A stretch of 64,000 bases of DNA. Origin: a virus. Positions within the stretch are counted from its first letter, which is position 1. Each line of letters opens with the position of its first letter. Below the pieces are notes generated by a model. That model did no database searches and was not told the origin of the DNA. It was given only the letters and a program-made list of their open reading frames with translations. The position numbers and the translations under genes were made by a program. Positions 40,750-62,234 of the stretch are shown here, in pieces. The stretch lies in the IMG/VR virus record IMGVR_UViG_3300021185_001231; one strand, given 5' to 3'.

Positions 40750-40840
40750 TGGCGGAGAGGGTGGGATTTGAACCCACGATACGCTATTAACGTATGCCAG
40801 TTTTCAAGACTGGTGCATTCAACCGCTCTGCCACCTCTCC
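40750..40840 (-). tRNA. tRNA-Ser(TGA)
   Basis: Cloverleaf with long variable arm; anticodon arm CCAGT-CTTGAAA-ACTGG; encoded CCA. Confidence 0.95.
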
Positions 40841-40850
40841 GAAAATATTA

Positions 40851-40934
40851 TGGTGGGGGGAGGTGGATTCGAACCACCGAAGCTTTCGCGTCAGATTTAC
40901 AGTCTGATCCCTTTGGCCGCTCGGGAATCCCCCC
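40851..40934 (-). tRNA. tRNA-Tyr(GTA)
   Basis: TCAGA-CTGTAAA-TCTGA; GTTCGAATC; encoded CCA. Confidence 0.95.
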
Positions 40935-40942
40935 CGATTAGA

Positions 40943-41059
40943 TTAATCTTTGAACTTGTTATCGATCCAACATTTACCGTAGTACAAAATTCCCAACCAA
41001 ACAGAGAAGAGTATTCCGTCTAGGTAACTGAGTGATTCCCAAACATTTATAGGGTCCAT
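40943..41059 (-). CDS. Small membrane peptide (38 aa) inside tRNA cluster, missed by ORF track
   Basis: AGGA RBS; MDPINVWESLSYLDGILFSVWLGILYYGKCWIDNKFKD. Confidence 0.65.
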   Translation of the reverse strand: MDPINVWESLSYLDGILFSVWLGILYYGKCWIDNKFKD

Positions 41060-41074
41060 GATTTTTTCCTATAT

Positions 41075-41151
41075 TGGCGGACTGGACGAGACTCGAACTC
41101 GCGACCTCCGGCGTGACAGGCCGGCATTCTAACCAACTGAACTACCAGTCC
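41075..41151 (-). tRNA. tRNA-Asp(GTC)
   Basis: CCGGC-CTGTCAC-GCCGG; encoded CCA. Confidence 0.95.
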
Positions 41152-41158
41152 TAGTTAA

Positions 41159-41234
<76 letters not shown>

Positions 41235-41245
41235 ATAAATTTGTC

Positions 41246-41341
41246 TGGTGACACAAAACTCTTCTTTGACCTTATACGTTGCACGTGCATAGTCTCCAAG
41301 CCTTCTGACTAACGGTACCAGTTACCGACCTACTTGGTGTC
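41246..41341 (-). ncRNA. Putative CCA-ending tRNA-like ncRNA
   Basis: 5' GACAC pairs with 3' GTGTC followed by ACCA; three internal hairpins; no canonical D/T loops. Confidence 0.5.
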
Positions 41342-41422
41342 GTGTTTCTATTTAGGATGATTAATCCCATTCTCATCATAGGAGAAACAAATAACTACTA
41401 GTCCGCAATCATAGGACTCGTT

Positions 41423-41498
41423 TGGTGGAGGTATGCGGGATCGAACCGCAGACCTTCGCCGTGCAAGGGCGACGCTCTCCCAGCTGAGCTATACCCCC
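41423..41498 (-). tRNA. tRNA-Ala(TGC)
   Basis: G3-U70 pair; TGC anticodon; encoded CCA. Confidence 0.95.
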
Positions 41499-41502
41499 AA
41501 AA

Positions 41503-41578
41503 TGGAGCTCGGAACAGGAGTCGAACCTGCGACCTGCTGATTACAAGTCAGCTGCTCTACCAACTGAGCTATCCGAGC
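41503..41578 (-). tRNA. tRNA-Thr(TGT)
   Basis: GCTGA-CTTGTAA-TCAGC; encoded CCA. Confidence 0.95.
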
Positions 41579-52017: not shown

Positions 52018-52278
52018 CTAAAAACCTGAATTTATCGCTAATGTTCTTAGAACTCTAGCGTCGACATTATATTGTTTAGATACGACACCAGCATAATATT
52101 CAAGTCCATGACGGCGTCCCTTTTCCGATTTTTTTCTATCCCAAATATCCTTTAGGATTTTAAGTGCGGCAGAATACTTTTTTTTCTGAATAGTATTTGC
52201 CATAACCTTTTTTAAAAACTGACCAGTAGGTGCTTCAGTTATGACTTCAGATGAAATATACTCCTTAAAGGATTTCAT
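52018..52278 (-). CDS. Putative internal head protein
   Basis: MKSFKEYISSEVITE N-terminus. Confidence 0.7.
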   Translation of the reverse strand: MKSFKEYISSEVITEAPTGQFLKKVMANTIQKKKYSAALKILKDIWDRKKSEKGRRHGLEYYAGVVSKQYNVDARVLRTLAINSGF

Positions 52279-52631
52279 CACTCCACCTTTGCACTAGCAC
52301 GCCACTGACGACAGCTCCAGTACCTAGCTTTCCACTTAGGGCCTGGATCTGAACAATTATGTCTTGCGCGGAAACTTTTTCTTCTTTCGGGGTCATCTCT
52401 TTTGATCTCCATATTAGGATCACCAAAAGATACCTTTACCACATTACCCTTATCGTTCTTTACATACACATAAAACTTCTTAGAACCACCACGTTGAATC
52501 TTATTCAACTTGACGTTGTCTTTCTTACCTTCTTCAGATACATATTCCGCATCCTCAATGACGAGTTCTTCATCTAAGGTAGAACAATCGTCACAACAAG
52601 ATTCAGATAAGAACTGTGAAAATCTTTTCAT
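52278..52631 (-). CDS. Conserved hypothetical protein (DUF6321-like), putative internal head protein
   Basis: MKRFSQFLSE; KKFYVYVK...V.FGD...RRKSFRARH.C...ARYWSC..W. Confidence 0.8.
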   Translation of the reverse strand: MKRFSQFLSESCCDDCSTLDEELVIEDAEYVSEEGKKDNVKLNKIQRGGSKKFYVYVKNDKGNVVKVSFGDPNMEIKRDDPERRKSFRARHNCSDPGPKWKARYWSCRQWRASAKVE

Positions 52632-52635
52632 GGTA

Positions 52636-53271
52636 TTATCCTTTCATATTCATTGCTTTCTTCATAGAAGACAATGACTTATTAATCTCATCCTGAAACT
52701 TCTTACGTACAGCAGGCTTCTTGAAAGAATCAAATTTCTTGGAAACTAATTGACAAGCCTTTTGTGGGAACTTTTGAGTCTTACCATCCTGAAAAGTTAC
52801 AGTACAACCCTTAGGCATATCAACACCGCGACGAATCTGCATAATCACATTCTTATCCGCAGCTTTACGATCATCAGAAGATGCTTTGTAATCATCAACG
52901 TCAGCAGAGTCCTTTTCTGTAGATTTCTTAGGACGACCATATGAGATTGCTTCTTCAACAGATTCCTTCACTTCTGGATTTTCGTGAGAGTAACTGTGAG
53001 GTTCGAAAGCCTCTGCCAAAGACCAACCCTTTCTTAGGTATTCCTTTTCTTTGGACTTATCGATTACGATTGTCTTACCGCCCTTCTGAACCATAGAGTC
53101 CTTCTTAGGATCTTTCATCTGTCGGGCTTCTTCAACCTCTTCACGAGCAACTAGTTTCCAACCCTGTCTTTTCATTCGGTCAGCAGTCTTACCATCAACC
53201 TTACGAGTGTAAGGTCCTTTCTTCATGGTGTAGTTCTCTGCACCTTCTCTTATCTCTTTAAACTGTTTCAC
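52636..53271 (-). CDS. Putative internal head polyprotein
   Basis: MKQFKEIRE; basic modules separated by VEE/LAE. Confidence 0.7.
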   Translation of the reverse strand: MKQFKEIREGAENYTMKKGPYTRKVDGKTADRMKRQGWKLVAREEVEEARQMKDPKKDSMVQKGGKTIVIDKSKEKEYLRKGWSLAEAFEPHSYSHENPEVKESVEEAISYGRPKKSTEKDSADVDDYKASSDDRKAADKNVIMQIRRGVDMPKGCTVTFQDGKTQKFPQKACQLVSKKFDSFKKPAVRKKFQDEINKSLSSMKKAMNMKG

Positions 53272-53273
53272 GT

Positions 53274-53456
53274 TTAACTTCCTCTTGATGCGCCACGAAT
53301 CATTTTCGTTGCTGCTCGGTTTGTATTATTTAATTTGAGACTGGGGCCTTGCGACCCCGTCATGTTAAACTTATTATTTTCAGAACTAGTAGACTGCAAC
53401 CTTTCTCGTTTCTCTTGAGACATCTTTTTGTTGCGAGGTTTCTTAGTCTTACTCAT
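53274..53456 (-). CDS. Small basic hypothetical protein
   Basis: AAGGA RBS; K/R-rich. Confidence 0.6.
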   Translation of the reverse strand: MSKTKKPRNKKMSQEKRERLQSTSSENNKFNMTGSQGPSLKLNNTNRAATKMIRGASRGS

Positions 53457-53468
53457 ATTTATTCCTTA

Positions 53469-56400
53469 TTATGATGGTAATGCAGTACCTACTGATATGT
53501 TGGTACCAATCTTTTGATCGGCGACAGTTCCATAGAATATATCCTGTAGAACACCAGAGTCATTATAACGATATACCGCACCACAATTAGTGATACCATT
53601 GTTATCCGTTTCTTTAGCAGATACTAAGATATATTCACCGAAGACTTCAAAACCACCACTATTGGTTGTAGTTCCATAACCCCACTTTGAAGCAATACCA
53701 TTTGGTATATCTGCCGGTTTAAACTCAATTTCATTGGTCAGACCTTCATCATATAAGAAAATCGAGTACTCTTCTGGGTTATAATGTATTTTGTTTGAAA
53801 CAACTAATTTTCCAGTAGAAGTAACCGCAAAGTCTCTGGCGAACTCATATGTTTCAGTCGAATAAGTTTTAGCCAAACTATGTAAAGTTGCACCCGATGA
53901 ATCAATTACTTCAATAGCGTTTTCTTTACTAACTACAAAGTTATCTCCCCACTTTACAAGTCCCGAACCTGAACCCATTCCTGGCACAGGAATAAACTGT
54001 TCATCCGAACCGTCTGGGGCAAAATGCCATATTCCCTGATCAGCAGAAGACCACTGACTTGTATGACCATATATTCTACCATCAATGAAGTGAATTCCAC
54101 CCCAATCGGTCATGCTCAGTCGACTAAACTTACCCAATGTCGGTGTAATTAAATATGTAGCAACATTACGATCCAATAGATCGACAACAATTATTGAACC
54201 AACTCCTTGAGGATTGTATTCAGGTGCACTAATGAATATCTTTCCTGCTCCAATAACAGCATCATTTGATGAGTCATACGGAGCGGATGGTCCACTTGCT
54301 TTTGCTGAATCAAGGTATGAATCATTAAATGTTTGTTCTAACTGACCAGTAGATTCGTCATAAACTTTAATTTCACCATGTTGGGAAATAGTTACGACTT
54401 TACCTTCTCCACCAACTACCATTTGCGGAGAGTCTAACTGTATAGTGGTAGGATTGCTGAAGTCACCATCCGTCATTACCACACCACCTACATCTGAACG
54501 TCCAACACCACCTTGGTAACTAGCAGCATCTGAACTCCACATGAAGATTTTATTTGATACTAGACCAGATGATGATGGTGCTGGCGGTGCAATGAATGCT
54601 GGTAGTGTGGGAACAGGTGACACACCCATCCCTGTTGTGTAAAAACCATTATGGTCGAATGTAGATCTAGGGTCAACGATAGAAAGTTCTGATCCATTAG
54701 ACGATAAATTAGACCAAGACCACTCAACAGTCTTCATGTTATTTCCTGAAGAACCTTTGTGAGTTGCATAGATTTTATCACCGAAAGATTTAACATGTTC
54801 GCCAAGTCTATCACCATCTGCAACAGACAATCCAGAATTAGATAACTTCGTAAGAGTTCCTAAGTTACCACTAGAGTCCATAGGAATAACAAAAACCTCA
54901 CCTGTAGAGTAATCATCTTCATTAGGGGAAGACGTTGGTGCACCAATCACGACACCCTTGTCAGATACGTATACAGATCGTGGCCAGGCCGCAAATTTAC
55001 CCCCCCAACCATATTGTCCAATATTCTCAGCGGAGAATTTCTGAATAAAAGAGAGATCCGAAGTATCATAGACATAGAGATCTTCCTTCCTGTTTCCCTC
55101 AGCAAGGTGTCCAATAAACAGTTTACCGTTGTGATATCTTACACAAGAACCGAATTTGTCATTCCAATCTCTATCTGTGTCTGTGTTCAATATTGTTGCG
55201 GTATGTGTGTTAATATTCGAAGATAAGTCCGACACGTCATATACTAGAACAATTCCCGAAATATAGTCTAATGTCCGATATGTCGCTCCATCAACCATTG
55301 AACTCCAACAACCCACATAAAGTTTTTTACTAACAGGATCAATATCAAATGAATTTCCAAAAGACCCAATATGCCATCCACTTAGGTTTGGAGTAATCTC
55401 TATAGGATTAGCGGAAAGATCGGTTAAATCATAAACGTAGATGTTGGTGTCATTGTCGTTTGCCCCTTGGAGAAACAGTTTATCATCCATTACCATCGAA
55501 GTTCCTTCAATCGTGCCGAATCTTTTGGCGGTAGATCCTAAAGGGTGGGAAATAGTTGTTGGGGGAGAGGATAAATCATCCAAAGACCAAATCATTATTT
55601 GGGGTGTTTTCCCACTACTATTAACTGGTGTCGAGGTTTCGTTATGGTAAACAGAATTTCCTACTATGATGTGAGTGTCGGTCAATAGTATAGAAGACCC
55701 TAAGTGTATACCGTAATTGATTCCGGAGTCTGAATACATCACACCTTCTAGAATCGTAACAGGAGCAGACATGTCACTTTGATTATAGATGTACACTCCA
55801 CCAACACTTTGATTGGAAGAATTTTTATAGTGGGGATCTCCTAGAGCCAAATAAGATGTGGTTGTGGATAATGGTGCAATGAATGTTGGACCTGAATTGG
55901 TAATTGTAGTTCCACTTAAAGTAAACTCCCAAACATCTACTTTAGTACCAGAATTACGGGTTCCAGATCCATCTGGTTTGTTTAAGTAGTGCAGTTTTAA
56001 ATCATCTTGGACATAAATTCCATGTTGTGCATAACCACCACCACTCAAGTCTTGTGTGTTAGTTATCAAACCAAGACCAGTAGTCATAACTGGGGTTGTT
56101 AAATCGTCTTTATGATACCAATGAAGTTTTTTCATATGGCTGTTATTATATTGAGCCAAAATGAGTAAATAATCTCCTATGGTCCTAATGTCTACATATT
56201 TCGTGGAATTATTTTGACCATCGTTAAGAGTGCCGATAAGATTGGATACTGTATCAGTAGGTATGTCATAAACAAGTGGAGTATACTCATCATCAATGTA
56301 TGTGAGCATTGATACTTTATCATCACCTAATAAATGTAGACCTCCGTAGGGATAACCTGTCCAATGAATAGGGCCAGAGATACCAGTGTAACGTATTCCC

Positions 56401-59544: not shown

Positions 59545-60765
59545 TTAGTTCCTAGTTGGTTTATCCCATCCTTTAAGTATATCAGGTGAAAAGTTATTGT
59601 ATGAGAACTCCATACGATCAACTAACTTCACCGCATCACCACCAATTACATCAATAGCTACGTAACCTTCTTCTCCAGTTACCTTGTAACCATTGGGTGT
59701 TTTGACAAATGTGTCAATTTTCTTCAATCTGTTAAGTTTATTTATAAGAATTAACTTCGCAAGTACGATACTTTTTTGTAATTCATACATGCTAATAAGA
59801 GATTTTCTGTTCTGAGGAGAGAAGAATTTTAGTATTTCGTCTAACTTCTTCTGCTGAACACCTTTACCCTTCTCAGTCTTTCTCTTATCTATCTCTTTCT
59901 GGTACTTAGATTCTATCCATTTCAACAATCCTTTTACGTGCATAGAAGTGTCACCTATGATCATTCCTTTGCGCACTAAAGTGTTGTTGTATTGTTCCAG
60001 TAGTTGTGCGAGATCTTGATTACTCTCCAGTTGTCGTAAAGTAGTCCCAGATATCTTATTAAACAGGACTCCACAAGTACTTAGGTGTTTATTAACTTCC
60101 TCAGTTTCCTTCTCATTCATTGTCGCACTAGAGACATCACGCAACATTGCATCCTGTGACCATACGTTTACAGAATTGCGAAATTTCGACACGTCAACAC
60201 CATATGTCGCTCGCATCGACTCAAATGTATCGCCAGTGTATGTTGTGTGCCACACAATACCGATCTTCGCACGAAGTATTTCTTTAGCTTGTTCTACTGG
60301 AACTGCATACGCAATAGTGTTTGGATGAAACACAACATAACTTGTACCGTCAATCTTTTTCTTAGATAAATCTTGTTTTGAAAACAGGAAGTCACCTTGG
60401 ACAACTCCTTTGATTCCTAATTCTGGAAGATACTTTAATGCATCTTTCATCTTTGAAGCCAAGTCTCCAGACATATCCCTATCAATTTCTTCATCTGTCT
60501 TATAAACTTTTGGGTTCTTGGCGAAGATTCCTTTCTTCGCTACAAAGAACTTGCCGTCCGAAGGATCTTGTCCAGCGAACACAGCGGGTGCGCCATCCCA
60601 TTTTACTGAGAGTTTGGAAGATTTCTTCCCAGCCAACATATCTCGCAAACTCCTTAATGCAAAGATAGCCTGACGTGTGCCATTCACACCCCCATAGAGA
60701 ACCTTATCCTCTATGTGGGTCATGTGAGTGTTCTTTTGTTCTGTTATAAATTGATTAAATTGCAT
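59545..60765 (-). CDS. DUF6267-like protein with ATP-dependent ligase/nucleotidyltransferase motifs
   Basis: SVKWDG, VQGD, EGYV, VKLVD. Confidence 0.7.
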   Translation of the reverse strand: MQFNQFITEQKNTHMTHIEDKVLYGGVNGTRQAIFALRSLRDMLAGKKSSKLSVKWDGAPAVFAGQDPSDGKFFVAKKGIFAKNPKVYKTDEEIDRDMSGDLASKMKDALKYLPELGIKGVVQGDFLFSKQDLSKKKIDGTSYVVFHPNTIAYAVPVEQAKEILRAKIGIVWHTTYTGDTFESMRATYGVDVSKFRNSVNVWSQDAMLRDVSSATMNEKETEEVNKHLSTCGVLFNKISGTTLRQLESNQDLAQLLEQYNNTLVRKGMIIGDTSMHVKGLLKWIESKYQKEIDKRKTEKGKGVQQKKLDEILKFFSPQNRKSLISMYELQKSIVLAKLILINKLNRLKKIDTFVKTPNGYKVTGEEGYVAIDVIGGDAVKLVDRMEFSYNNFSPDILKGWDKPTRN

Positions 60766-60773
60766 TTATATAC

Positions 60774-62186
60774 CTAGTATAACTTAGCGAATGGCCCAAA
60801 AAGAGAACCCTTTTTCTGTGCTAAATACCCAATATCACTTAACATATCATTAAGTTTATCACCTTTAGCTTTAGAAAAAATAATATTTAAGAGATCTAAT
60901 TGCATCAACTTACTGTTCGCAACGTCTGAATCAATGGTTTTAAATATTTCTGATACATTGTCGGCAAATTCCTCTCCTGTACGAACCCCTAGATTTATAT
61001 GTCCAGTCTTTTTTAAAGACTCAAATCTAGAAATGTGAACATCTCTTTCTTTATCAAACTCTTCAGAGTTTCTAGGATAATTTTTCCAACTTCTCCATCT
61101 TTGGGGTTCTAATCTATTAGACCTAAAAGCTTGACTAACCATGTCTAAAGGAGCTTTACCCAGTCTAGCACCAGTTGCCGAGATATCTGTAGCCTCAACC
61201 TTGAGGTTATTAAATCCTTTACTGTTCTGTCTAATCTGAAACTTTATAGTTTGTTTACTGGAACCAATTTTTAATGTGGAGTCAGTATTAGTAAAAGTTT
61301 TCTGATTTGATTTTAGAGAAAATAAACATTGTCCCTCATCGAAAGAAAACGAATATTCGTCACCATCAAACACATCAGAATTATCTAGGTTCACCAATTC
61401 CCATCTAGCGTATTTACCAGACATTTTCTTTAGAGAAATACCCACGACAGTTCTATCGTGGAACATGTCTCTGAGAATAAGATTGAATTCTTGTAGACTC
61501 GTAGTATTGTCTTTAATCTTAGAATCTAGAGTTCTTTTTACAGAATTTAAATCTTTAACTAACCAGATGTCAGCTGGGTTCCAATTGTCTTTTTTACTTA
61601 TACCATACAGTTTAGAACATGTTTGTGTAATATAATCCATAAAACCACCATCACGAGAATAGTGACCAAACTTAAATTTACCACCCTTATTGATCTGATC
61701 ATAGGTAGTTTTTTGTTGTTCGAATAGAGTATTCTCCCAATCCTCATTTAAGTTTGGATATATTTCGACCAGTTTATCACGATGTTCACTGAAAAATTTT
61801 GTTCTGTCTGTATACTTTCCGTTCTCCAAAGCCATTTCTATAGAATAAAGAGAGGCAAGTTCTTGCATAGCTGTTGTTTTAGCGTCTGGTTTTCCTGTAC
61901 CACCCATACCACTATACGGAGATTTGTCAATTTTAGTCCAAGTATTGCCATTAAATATTGGTATAAATTTTCCAGATTTTAAAGTGGTTCCTCTCATTGA
62001 GAGATTAACATTTGATATGTTATTATCATTTACACCTTTAATAAATTTCTTTATTTCTTTTGTTATCTCAATCTTTTCTTTGGATCCATTTATAAACTTT
62101 ATTTTGTTTCCTTTTTCGATATCGGAAGCTACCATCTTAAGGTATGGTTTATTAAATTCAGCTTCCTTTCCTCCAAGCGCAGCCAT
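60774..62186 (-). CDS. Putative restriction-endonuclease-fold protein
   Basis: T..QE, WNPADIW, GISLKK (D...SxK variant of PD-(D/E)xK). Confidence 0.5.
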   Translation of the reverse strand: MAALGGKEAEFNKPYLKMVASDIEKGNKIKFINGSKEKIEITKEIKKFIKGVNDNNISNVNLSMRGTTLKSGKFIPIFNGNTWTKIDKSPYSGMGGTGKPDAKTTAMQELASLYSIEMALENGKYTDRTKFFSEHRDKLVEIYPNLNEDWENTLFEQQKTTYDQINKGGKFKFGHYSRDGGFMDYITQTCSKLYGISKKDNWNPADIWLVKDLNSVKRTLDSKIKDNTTSLQEFNLILRDMFHDRTVVGISLKKMSGKYARWELVNLDNSDVFDGDEYSFSFDEGQCLFSLKSNQKTFTNTDSTLKIGSSKQTIKFQIRQNSKGFNNLKVEATDISATGARLGKAPLDMVSQAFRSNRLEPQRWRSWKNYPRNSEEFDKERDVHISRFESLKKTGHINLGVRTGEEFADNVSEIFKTIDSDVANSKLMQLDLLNIIFSKAKGDKLNDMLSDIGYLAQKKGSLFGPFAKLY

Positions 62187-62226: not shown

Positions 62227-62234
62227 TATTTATA
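62227..62234 (-). promoter_or_regulatory. T4-type late promoter for the internal-protein operon
   Basis: TATAAATA overlapping stop of upstream exonuclease. Confidence 0.7.

Follow-up and report, generated by a model that had tools for sequence, protein, structure and literature searches.

In bacteriophage T4, the internal proteins IPI-III and the enzyme Alt are targeted to the capsid, trimmed by the gp21 protease, and injected into the cell. The T4 capsid-targeting sequence (CTS), MKTYQEFIAE (PMC8442874), is cleaved off inside the prohead and brings foreign proteins into the head (PMC8442874, PMC3012670, PMC9958956). Cytidylyltransferases are often present in cyanophage virions (PMC10665884). 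A second set of comparisons is provided by the ligase superfamily of covalent lysine nucleotidyltransferases, in particular the Naegleria gruberi RNA ligase NgrRnl (Rnl5; PDB 5COT, 6VT3), whose catalytic residues are K170, D172, E227, E312, and K326 according to the PDB titles, and T4 Rnl1 (RnlA/gp63), which is grouped with the fungal Trl1 ligase domain in Pfam PF09511. Here, we analyzed a 64,000-nucleotide stretch of viral DNA (IMG/VR record IMGVR_UViG_3300021185_001231; hereafter the window) and describe one of its open reading frames (ORFs), which encodes a protein of the DUF6267 family. The reading we prefer, with a probability of roughly 0.6, is that this protein is a divergent covalent nucleotidyltransferase, packaged into the head of this phage, that joins RNA ends or nicks.

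The ORF matches Pfam DUF6267 (PF19782) over nearly the whole model (352 bits, E = 5.6e-105, model positions 1-373 of 376; curated cut-off, 27 bits) and belongs to PHROG 455, whose function is unknown. We aligned 112 near-full-length DUF6267 homologues, representatives drawn from a scan of 1.84 billion cluster representatives; their identity to the query is 34-60%, and the columns of the alignment average 35% identity. Invariance is limited to 14 columns (H17, K55, D57, G58, G65, K78, D125, Y153, G169, H173, E366, G367, K380, and F387). Seven of them, K55, D57, G58, D125, E366, G367, and K380, are the predicted catalytic positions, and all seven are kept in the short cyanophage forms of S-RIM2 (298 aa) and P-SSM3 (308 aa). 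Because half of the invariant columns at this mean identity are the residues expected of a ligase, the motif pattern is more than a chance resemblance.

A preliminary description of the locus, made from the sequence alone, had listed SVKWDG (with Lys55), VVQGDF, IGIVWH, GEEGYV, and AVKLVD as an ordered set of superfamily motifs I, III, IIIa, IV, and V. All five strings lie where it placed them (IGIVWH at residues 168-173, AVKLVD at 378-383; others in Table 1), and the invariance of Lys55 and of residues in motifs III, IV, and V sustains four of the assignments. Motif III is conserved at Q123 (96%), G124 (99%), and D125 (100%). The assignment of IGIVWH to motif IIIa is insecure, and the segment from F146 to Y153 fits better by spacing; here F146 (96%), P148 (97%), N149 (99%), and Y153 (100%) are conserved, and F146 and Y153 are, by their spacing, candidates for the base-stacking aromatic residues of motif IIIa. 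The likeness of the invariant K78 to K117-S-K119 of Rnl1 was judged by eye only. Ahead of motif I, the family has its own H-x-x-H-x-E-D motif (H14 96%, H17 100%, E19 86%, D20 83%). With a KxDG motif I, an acidic residue in motif III, an E/D-G motif IV, a motif V lysine, and the corresponding fold, the protein is very probably a divergent enzyme of the covalent lysine nucleotidyltransferase superfamily.

The AlphaFold2 (AF2) model built from the 112-sequence alignment had a predicted local distance difference test score (pLDDT) of 94.6 and a predicted template modeling score (pTM) of 0.91. Residues 1-8 are disordered (pLDDT <50) and are followed by helix 18-44, a beta-rich core, helices at approximately 218-347, four strands bearing motifs IV and V, and a single closing helix at 384-392. 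This layout agrees with two further features of the preliminary description, a long helical insert and the lack of a C-terminal OB (oligonucleotide/oligosaccharide-binding) domain; since the chain stops 26 residues past K380, with one helix there, no room is left for such a domain. Before motif I, the model contains only the disordered leader and helix 18-44, and no OB-like domain of the kind present in the Rnl5 family (NgrRnl, DraRnl). The insert is less conserved than the core (mean conservation 0.34 versus 0.56-0.59), with the exceptions of N261 (99%), K337 (99%), and position 265 (K or R in 96%), and it is approximately 70-100 residues shorter in S-RIM2 and P-SSM3. It is a candidate substrate-binding module.

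The best structural matches of the AF2 model were ligases, as expected from the ligase-like fold proposed earlier, and RNA ligases outscored DNA ligases. A Foldseek search against the PDB was weak overall, with no match at E <0.1; its highest-probability matches were DNA ligases, T4 Rnl1 was among the weak ones, and the adenylation domains of LigA gave weak local matches (E 0.37-0.55, top identity 22%). The BFVD search returned family members and, weakly, RNA ligases including the Atu_ph07 RNA ligase, and the ESM Atlas fold search returned the DUF6267 family only.

The layout, a nucleotidyltransferase domain alone without an OB domain, is closest to that of RNA ligases. The motif IV Glu and the motif V Lys are 14 residues apart (E366-K380), as in NgrRnl (E312-K326). 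NgrRnl shows 11-12% identity and no detectable sequence relationship, and it has an N-terminal OB-like domain where the DUF6267 protein has one helix; conversely, NgrRnl lacks the 130-residue helical insert, the motif III Asp, and the single motif V Lys of the DUF6267 protein. T4 Rnl1, likewise phage-encoded, gave the only sequence echo that we found. In hhalign comparisons of the family profile with T4 Rnl1, taken singly or as a profile of 47 sequences, only motifs IV-V were aligned, pairing EGYVAI..VKL with EGYVAV..FKI of Rnl1 (E366-G367 with E227-G228 and K380 with K240). Both proteins have an all-helical accessory domain in place of the OB fold, which is appended C-terminally in Rnl1, whereas in the DUF6267 protein it is inserted ahead of motif IV. 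Rnl1 itself has no capsid-targeting leader. The DUF6267 protein also has no sequence match to T4 RNA ligase 2 or trypanosome REL1 (PF09414) and lacks the Rnl2-type C-terminal domain.

Sequence links to named ligase families were at the limit of detection. No ligase was recovered from PDB sequences when either the ORF protein or the 112-sequence profile served as the query. Pfam RNA_lig_T4_1 (PF09511) matched 4 of the 112 members weakly (best E = 6e-4), and a six-frame scan of phage S-RIM32 with the same model gave a sole candidate, which was sub-threshold (E = 0.0016, 14.9 bits) and lay inside the DUF6267 gene; DUF6267 members fall below the family cut-off of 28.3 bits. We therefore place DUF6267 outside the named RNA ligase families and regard it as a new family of the ligase superfamily with an architecture of its own.

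The N-terminus of the protein suggests how it reaches the host. Its first nine residues, MQFNQFITE, resemble the T4 CTS as an N-terminal leader of approximately 10 residues with a hydrophobic-x-Glu end, in accordance with the capsid-targeting N-terminus noted in the preliminary description. Among 133 family representatives with a recognizable core, 51 matched the leader pattern strictly and many more loosely, and 24 were leaderless and began directly at the conserved core. Long N-terminally extended or fused DUF6267 forms have a hydrophobic-x-Glu junction immediately before the core. The leader is modular across the family. Late transcription of the co-oriented gene run is predicted from the upstream TATAAATA motif (T4 late-promoter consensus; Table 1). 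The second TATAAATA motif, within the DUF6267 gene, could drive late expression of the downstream genes for the basic protein and the adenylyltransferase. A gp21-type prohead protease (PF03420) is encoded by close relatives, namely G002, a complete 146.6-kb IMG/VR relative (E = 3e-39), and C48C1 (E = 1.2e-40).

In this phage, the CTS-like leader and the TATAAATA late promoter ahead of the operon make it likely that the protein is packaged into the head and injected. It would share with IPI-III and Alt the leader type, late expression, and the gp21-type protease found in relatives, with the difference that the cargo here is a ligase-fold enzyme. In phage S-SZBM1, the virions contain a leader-bearing adenylyltransferase (MRFRQFIIE), and its DUF6267 orthologue is not named in the virion proteome paper (PMC9146016). 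This orthologue is 36% identical, adjacent to the adenylyltransferase gene, and starts MAKNTHLEHLED with no leader; the pair of a tagged enzyme in the virion and an untagged orthologue that is not named supports the role of the tag. Since cyanophage orthologues have no leader, packaging is specific to some lineages and not family-wide. The cyanophage gene lies in a replication gene cluster with TATAAT-like rather than late-type motifs upstream, and early transcription in cyanophages would achieve the same early timing without packaging; by our inference, either route brings the enzyme into the cell early.

In the mechanism that we propose, K55 would act as the nucleophile on the alpha-phosphate of ATP (or NAD+), giving an enzyme-AMP adduct from which the AMP would be moved onto a 5'-phosphate end; a 3'-OH end would then attack to seal the strand. 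The nucleotide would be held by D125, E366/G367, and K380/R384, and the nucleic acid by the helical insert. Loading into the prohead core is probable because the gene is read as late-transcribed and bears a T4-type capsid-targeting leader; the protein would be incorporated there, trimmed after Glu9 by a gp21-type protease, and injected with the DNA, and the downstream-encoded NMNAT/PPAT-like adenylyltransferase and small basic protein would travel along. The enzyme would be active from the outset of infection, most likely on broken RNA ends (e.g., tRNA cut by host nucleases) or nicks.

Table 1. Features of the DUF6267 protein and its locus, with nucleotide positions in the window and residue numbers in the feature column.
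Feature	Position	Strand	Remarks
T4-type late-promoter motif TATAAATA	62227-62234	-	48 nt upstream of the first gene in the co-oriented run
Upstream gene, 470 aa (phrog_1462)	60774-62186	-	Unknown function; co-oriented, presumed co-transcribed
DUF6267 ORF, 406 aa	59545-60765	-	ATG start; candidate ligase-fold covalent nucleotidyltransferase
Leader MQFNQFITE, 1-9	60739-60765	-	Capsid-targeting-like; ends I-T-E, a putative prohead-protease cleavage site
H-x-x-H-x-E-D, 14-20	60706-60726	-	Family-specific N-terminal motif directly before helix 18-44
Motif I KxDG, K55-W-D57-G58	60592-60603	-	K55, predicted nucleotidyl-accepting lysine; K55, D57, and G58 100%
K78 in consensus T-K-S	60532-60534	-	Invariant; possible motif Ia-like lysine
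Motif III VVQGDF, 121-126	60388-60405	-	D125 where Glu is usual
F146-x-P-N-T-I-x-Y153	60307-60330	-	Likely motif IIIa region, placed by spacing only
Strand IGIVWHTTY, 168-176	60238-60264	-	G169 and H173 invariant; T174 99%, Y176 95%
Helical insert, 218-347	59725-60114	-	After IIIa, before motif IV; net charge +9, length variable
Second TATAAATA motif	59739-59746	-	Inside the DUF6267 gene, in its 3' part; the small basic ORF lies ~200 nt downstream
Motif IV GEEGYV (E366-G367), 364-369	59659-59676	-	E366 and G367 invariant; V369 97%
Motif V AVK380LVDR384	59614-59634	-	Single lysine; K380 invariant, R384 97%
Small basic protein, 154 aa	59079-59543	-	Lys/Arg-rich; between DUF6267 and the adenylyltransferase
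HIGH-motif adenylyltransferase-like protein, 604 aa	57265-59079	-	Leader MPIKNFSQYLVEE, extra modules, C-terminal DUF5824
ORF, 117 aa (phrog_7595)	52278-52631	-	Leader MKRFSQFLSE
Six-tRNA cluster	40750-41578	-	Ser-UGA, Tyr-GUA, Asp-GUC, Asn-GUU, Ala-UGC, Thr-UGU

The DUF6267 gene is tightly packed with its neighbors. Its ATG lies 8 nt past the stop of the upstream gene, the small basic ORF begins 2 nt past its own stop, and the stop of the basic ORF overlaps the adenylyltransferase ATG. The preliminary description had placed a HIGH nucleotidyltransferase two genes away and suggested that the two genes co-occur; it is indeed the second gene downstream, and among 80 related viral contigs (53-78% identity), a homologue was found downstream on the same strand in 75, while the other five loci end <1.5 kb downstream. 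All 75 adenylyltransferase genes adjoining DUF6267 encode a leader, and the adjacency holds in leaderless cyanophages too. Pfam recognizes CTP_transf_like and DUF5824 domains in the 604-residue protein. The model of its N-domain (pLDDT 85.9) matches the folds of NadD/NMNAT, which act on nicotinic acid or nicotinamide mononucleotide (NaMN/NMN), and PPAT, the phosphopantetheine adenylyltransferase (E 4e-5 to 1e-3); a profile of this domain found nothing among PDB sequences, and the assignment was made by fold search alone. The middle modules of the protein match separate PHROGs and, in relatives, are split into their own genes or recombined, a modularity as expected of a protease-cut polyprotein. 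Most of the 80 relatives have a homologue of the small basic protein at this position; the protein may be a DNA-binding cargo similar to the T4 internal proteins.

DUF6267-adenylyltransferase fusions occur in both orders. There are 389 longer DUF6267 forms, and fused forms number in the hundreds. DUF6267 is also fused to a Zeta/AAA_33 P-loop kinase, one such cluster comprising 344 sequences. The fused kinase keeps its own leader, the DUF6267 leader persists at the junction, and the kinase is 59% identical to a stand-alone kinase encoded approximately 7 kb upstream of DUF6267 in an 89%-identical relative. Among PHROG families, the P-loop kinase has a match to "polynucleotide kinase" (E = 1.8e-10). 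In the TARA relative (89% identical DUF6267), the stand-alone 225-aa Zeta-toxin/AAA_33 P-loop kinase (L003:2412-3089) bears the leader MKTFTDFLSE. No polymerase Pfam domain was found among the 120 longer DUF6267 forms listed, which is weak evidence against a fusion with Pol X.

Several of these findings weigh against a head-packaged enzyme that joins RNA ends or nicks. Motif V has one lysine, where ATP-dependent ligases have K-x-K; the second lysine is absent, position 382 being Val in 90%, and R384 (97%) may substitute for it. Motif III has Asp in place of the usual Glu. The profile-profile similarity to Rnl1 spans only 20 columns (E = 0.11), and hhalign against Rnl2 gave nothing meaningful. 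The kinase resembles adenylate kinase equally well (PDB, E = 0.0075). The fused proteins all bear leaders and Glu junctions, so that fusion may simply reflect polyprotein cargo that the head protease cuts and need not point to one shared pathway. We identified neither a phosphatase nor a phosphodiesterase for end healing, and a complete pathway of tRNA repair is therefore not evident. On balance, we lean slightly toward a polynucleotide ligase as the biochemical class. RNA or hybrid end-joining is favored because an OB domain is lacking, RNA ligases score higher structurally, motif IV echoes Rnl1, and Stenotrophomonas phage DLP6 has DUF6267 alongside a canonical DNA ligase; the narrower proposal of RNA rather than DNA as the substrate is tentative.

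A different role is also conceivable. Marine T4-like phages might use the DUF6267 protein as their "missing" DNA ligase in place of T4 gp30, to seal nicks and Okazaki fragments during replication or recombination or ahead of packaging. In four complete relatives (G002, C48C1, S-SZBM1, and S-RIM32), PF01068, PF01653, and PF09414 had no match and PF09511 none that was significant, and the T4 controls, including gp30, were recovered; thus neither a canonical ATP- or NAD-dependent DNA ligase nor a canonical RNA ligase was found there, and DUF6267 was the only ligase-superfamily gene found. In addition, gp30 is listed among the genes absent from marine cyanophages (PMC2993671; "non-cyanophage core" table, PMC5349666), and the cyanophage DUF6267 gene, with its TATAAT-like upstream motifs, lies within the replication cluster gp43-uvsX-gp41-MazG...gp61-nrdA. 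The architecture of the protein points the other way, as it has neither the OB domain nor motif VI of T4 gp30, the Chlorella virus ligase, and human Lig1, and PF01068 misses DUF6267. To our knowledge, all known DNA ligases possess both of these elements. The higher structural scores of RNA ligases and, in this phage, a leader and late promoter that point to the capsid and not the replisome also speak against such a role. It is further weakened because DLP6 carries both the full DUF6267 cassette with its leader (E = 1.4e-119) and a canonical PF01068 ATP-dependent DNA ligase. We consider a replicative DNA ligase unlikely.

DLP6 is a soil T4-like phage (KU682439), and its DUF6267-small ORF-cytidylyltransferase cassette spans 52316-56207, with the leader MMKFTQFLAE and CTAAATA motifs upstream of two genes. 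The module thus also occurs outside marine phages.

The strict pairing and fusion with an adenylyltransferase of the NadD/NMNAT/PPAT fold could instead indicate a covalent nucleotidyltransferase that does not join polynucleotides and acts with its neighbor on a cofactor or cap, for example in NAD-linked chemistry, protein or small-molecule adenylylation, or RNA 5'-end capping. In NAD-dependent ligases (LigA), a conserved N-terminal segment precedes motif I, and motif V has a single lysine. The DUF6267 protein shares both features, the weak LigA adenylation-domain matches showed the highest identity in the Foldseek search, the partner gene encodes an NMNAT-like protein, and the nearby kinase resembles adenylate kinase. 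The likeness to LigA is local, however; the OB, zinc finger, HhH, and BRCT modules are missing, and PF01653 does not match. A capping enzyme had been among the classes suggested in the preliminary description. The OB domain is lacking, and no capping enzyme appeared among the 50 best matches listed in either VIA structural search, a result that does not in itself exclude a similarity. Moreover, a basic helical insert that contains conserved K and R residues suits a nucleic-acid substrate, and we regard a non-joining role as improbable. The leader and late expression in this phage would also suit a ligase-fold protein that has lost catalysis and serves in structure or assembly, for instance in the head core or as an internal protein, and T4 gp63/Rnl1 is annotated with a second, non-catalytic role in tail-fibre attachment, but the invariance of all predicted catalytic residues in the alignment and their retention in leaderless cyanophage forms are hard to explain without catalysis, which makes this alternative very improbable.

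For the packaged end-joining enzyme, we also offer a broader proposal, which is speculative. Marine T4-like (pelagimyophage-type) phages may inject a two-enzyme module, composed of the ligase-family protein and the NMNAT/PPAT-like adenylyltransferase and sometimes the P-loop kinase, that acts before phage gene expression. Such a module would, for example, reseal tRNAs or other RNAs cut by host defense nucleases. Alternatively, the adenylyltransferase might supply an adenylate donor (NAD+ or a related dinucleotide) to a ligase with a single-lysine motif V.

The DUF6267 scan yielded 2,584 clusters at 50% identity (E up to 0.001), matches occur in 467 phage records, mostly of cyanomyoviruses, and the gene is common to most marine T4-like phages. 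Literature searches for "DUF6267" found no paper, and nothing relevant to an RNA ligase in cyanophage virions appeared in the titles or abstracts of the literature retrieved. The database names that we met were "hypothetical" or taken from the fused adenylyltransferase, and none says ligase. If the protein is an active ligase, a function would be assigned to a core gene of some of the most abundant viruses in the ocean. An end-joining enzyme would also join the short list of head-carried, injected phage enzymes, of which T4 Alt is the classic case, and early counter-defense by a packaged enzyme would become directly testable in this lineage. A compact ligase of a new family without an OB domain could serve as a reagent.

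A conserved three-gene set that includes phrog_1462 was considered and dropped, as the upstream genes of C48C1, S-RIM32, S-SZBM1, and the TARA relative do not align with it and match other PHROGs or none. The phrog_1462 gene is fused to DUF6267 in protein P0263. By eye, its product has a PD-(D/E)xK-like pattern (PADIW...GISLKK), and the named Atlas clusters that come closest to it are those of HaeIII- and HpaII-type restriction enzymes, although the score is no more than 0.83. The phrog_7595 family, represented in the window by the 117-aa ORF, is fused to the DUF6267 N-terminus in the metagenomic protein P0124. The G002 homologue (G002:C1:38619-39776, locus L098) has one in-frame TAG near its 5' end, which may reflect a sequencing error, a disrupted gene, or recoding. 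The window also encodes the tRNA cluster listed in Table 1. Some anticodon nucleases cut tRNAs of the GUN anticodon group, to which the Tyr, Asp, and Asn tRNAs here belong, and the cluster may bear on the tRNA-damage scenario.

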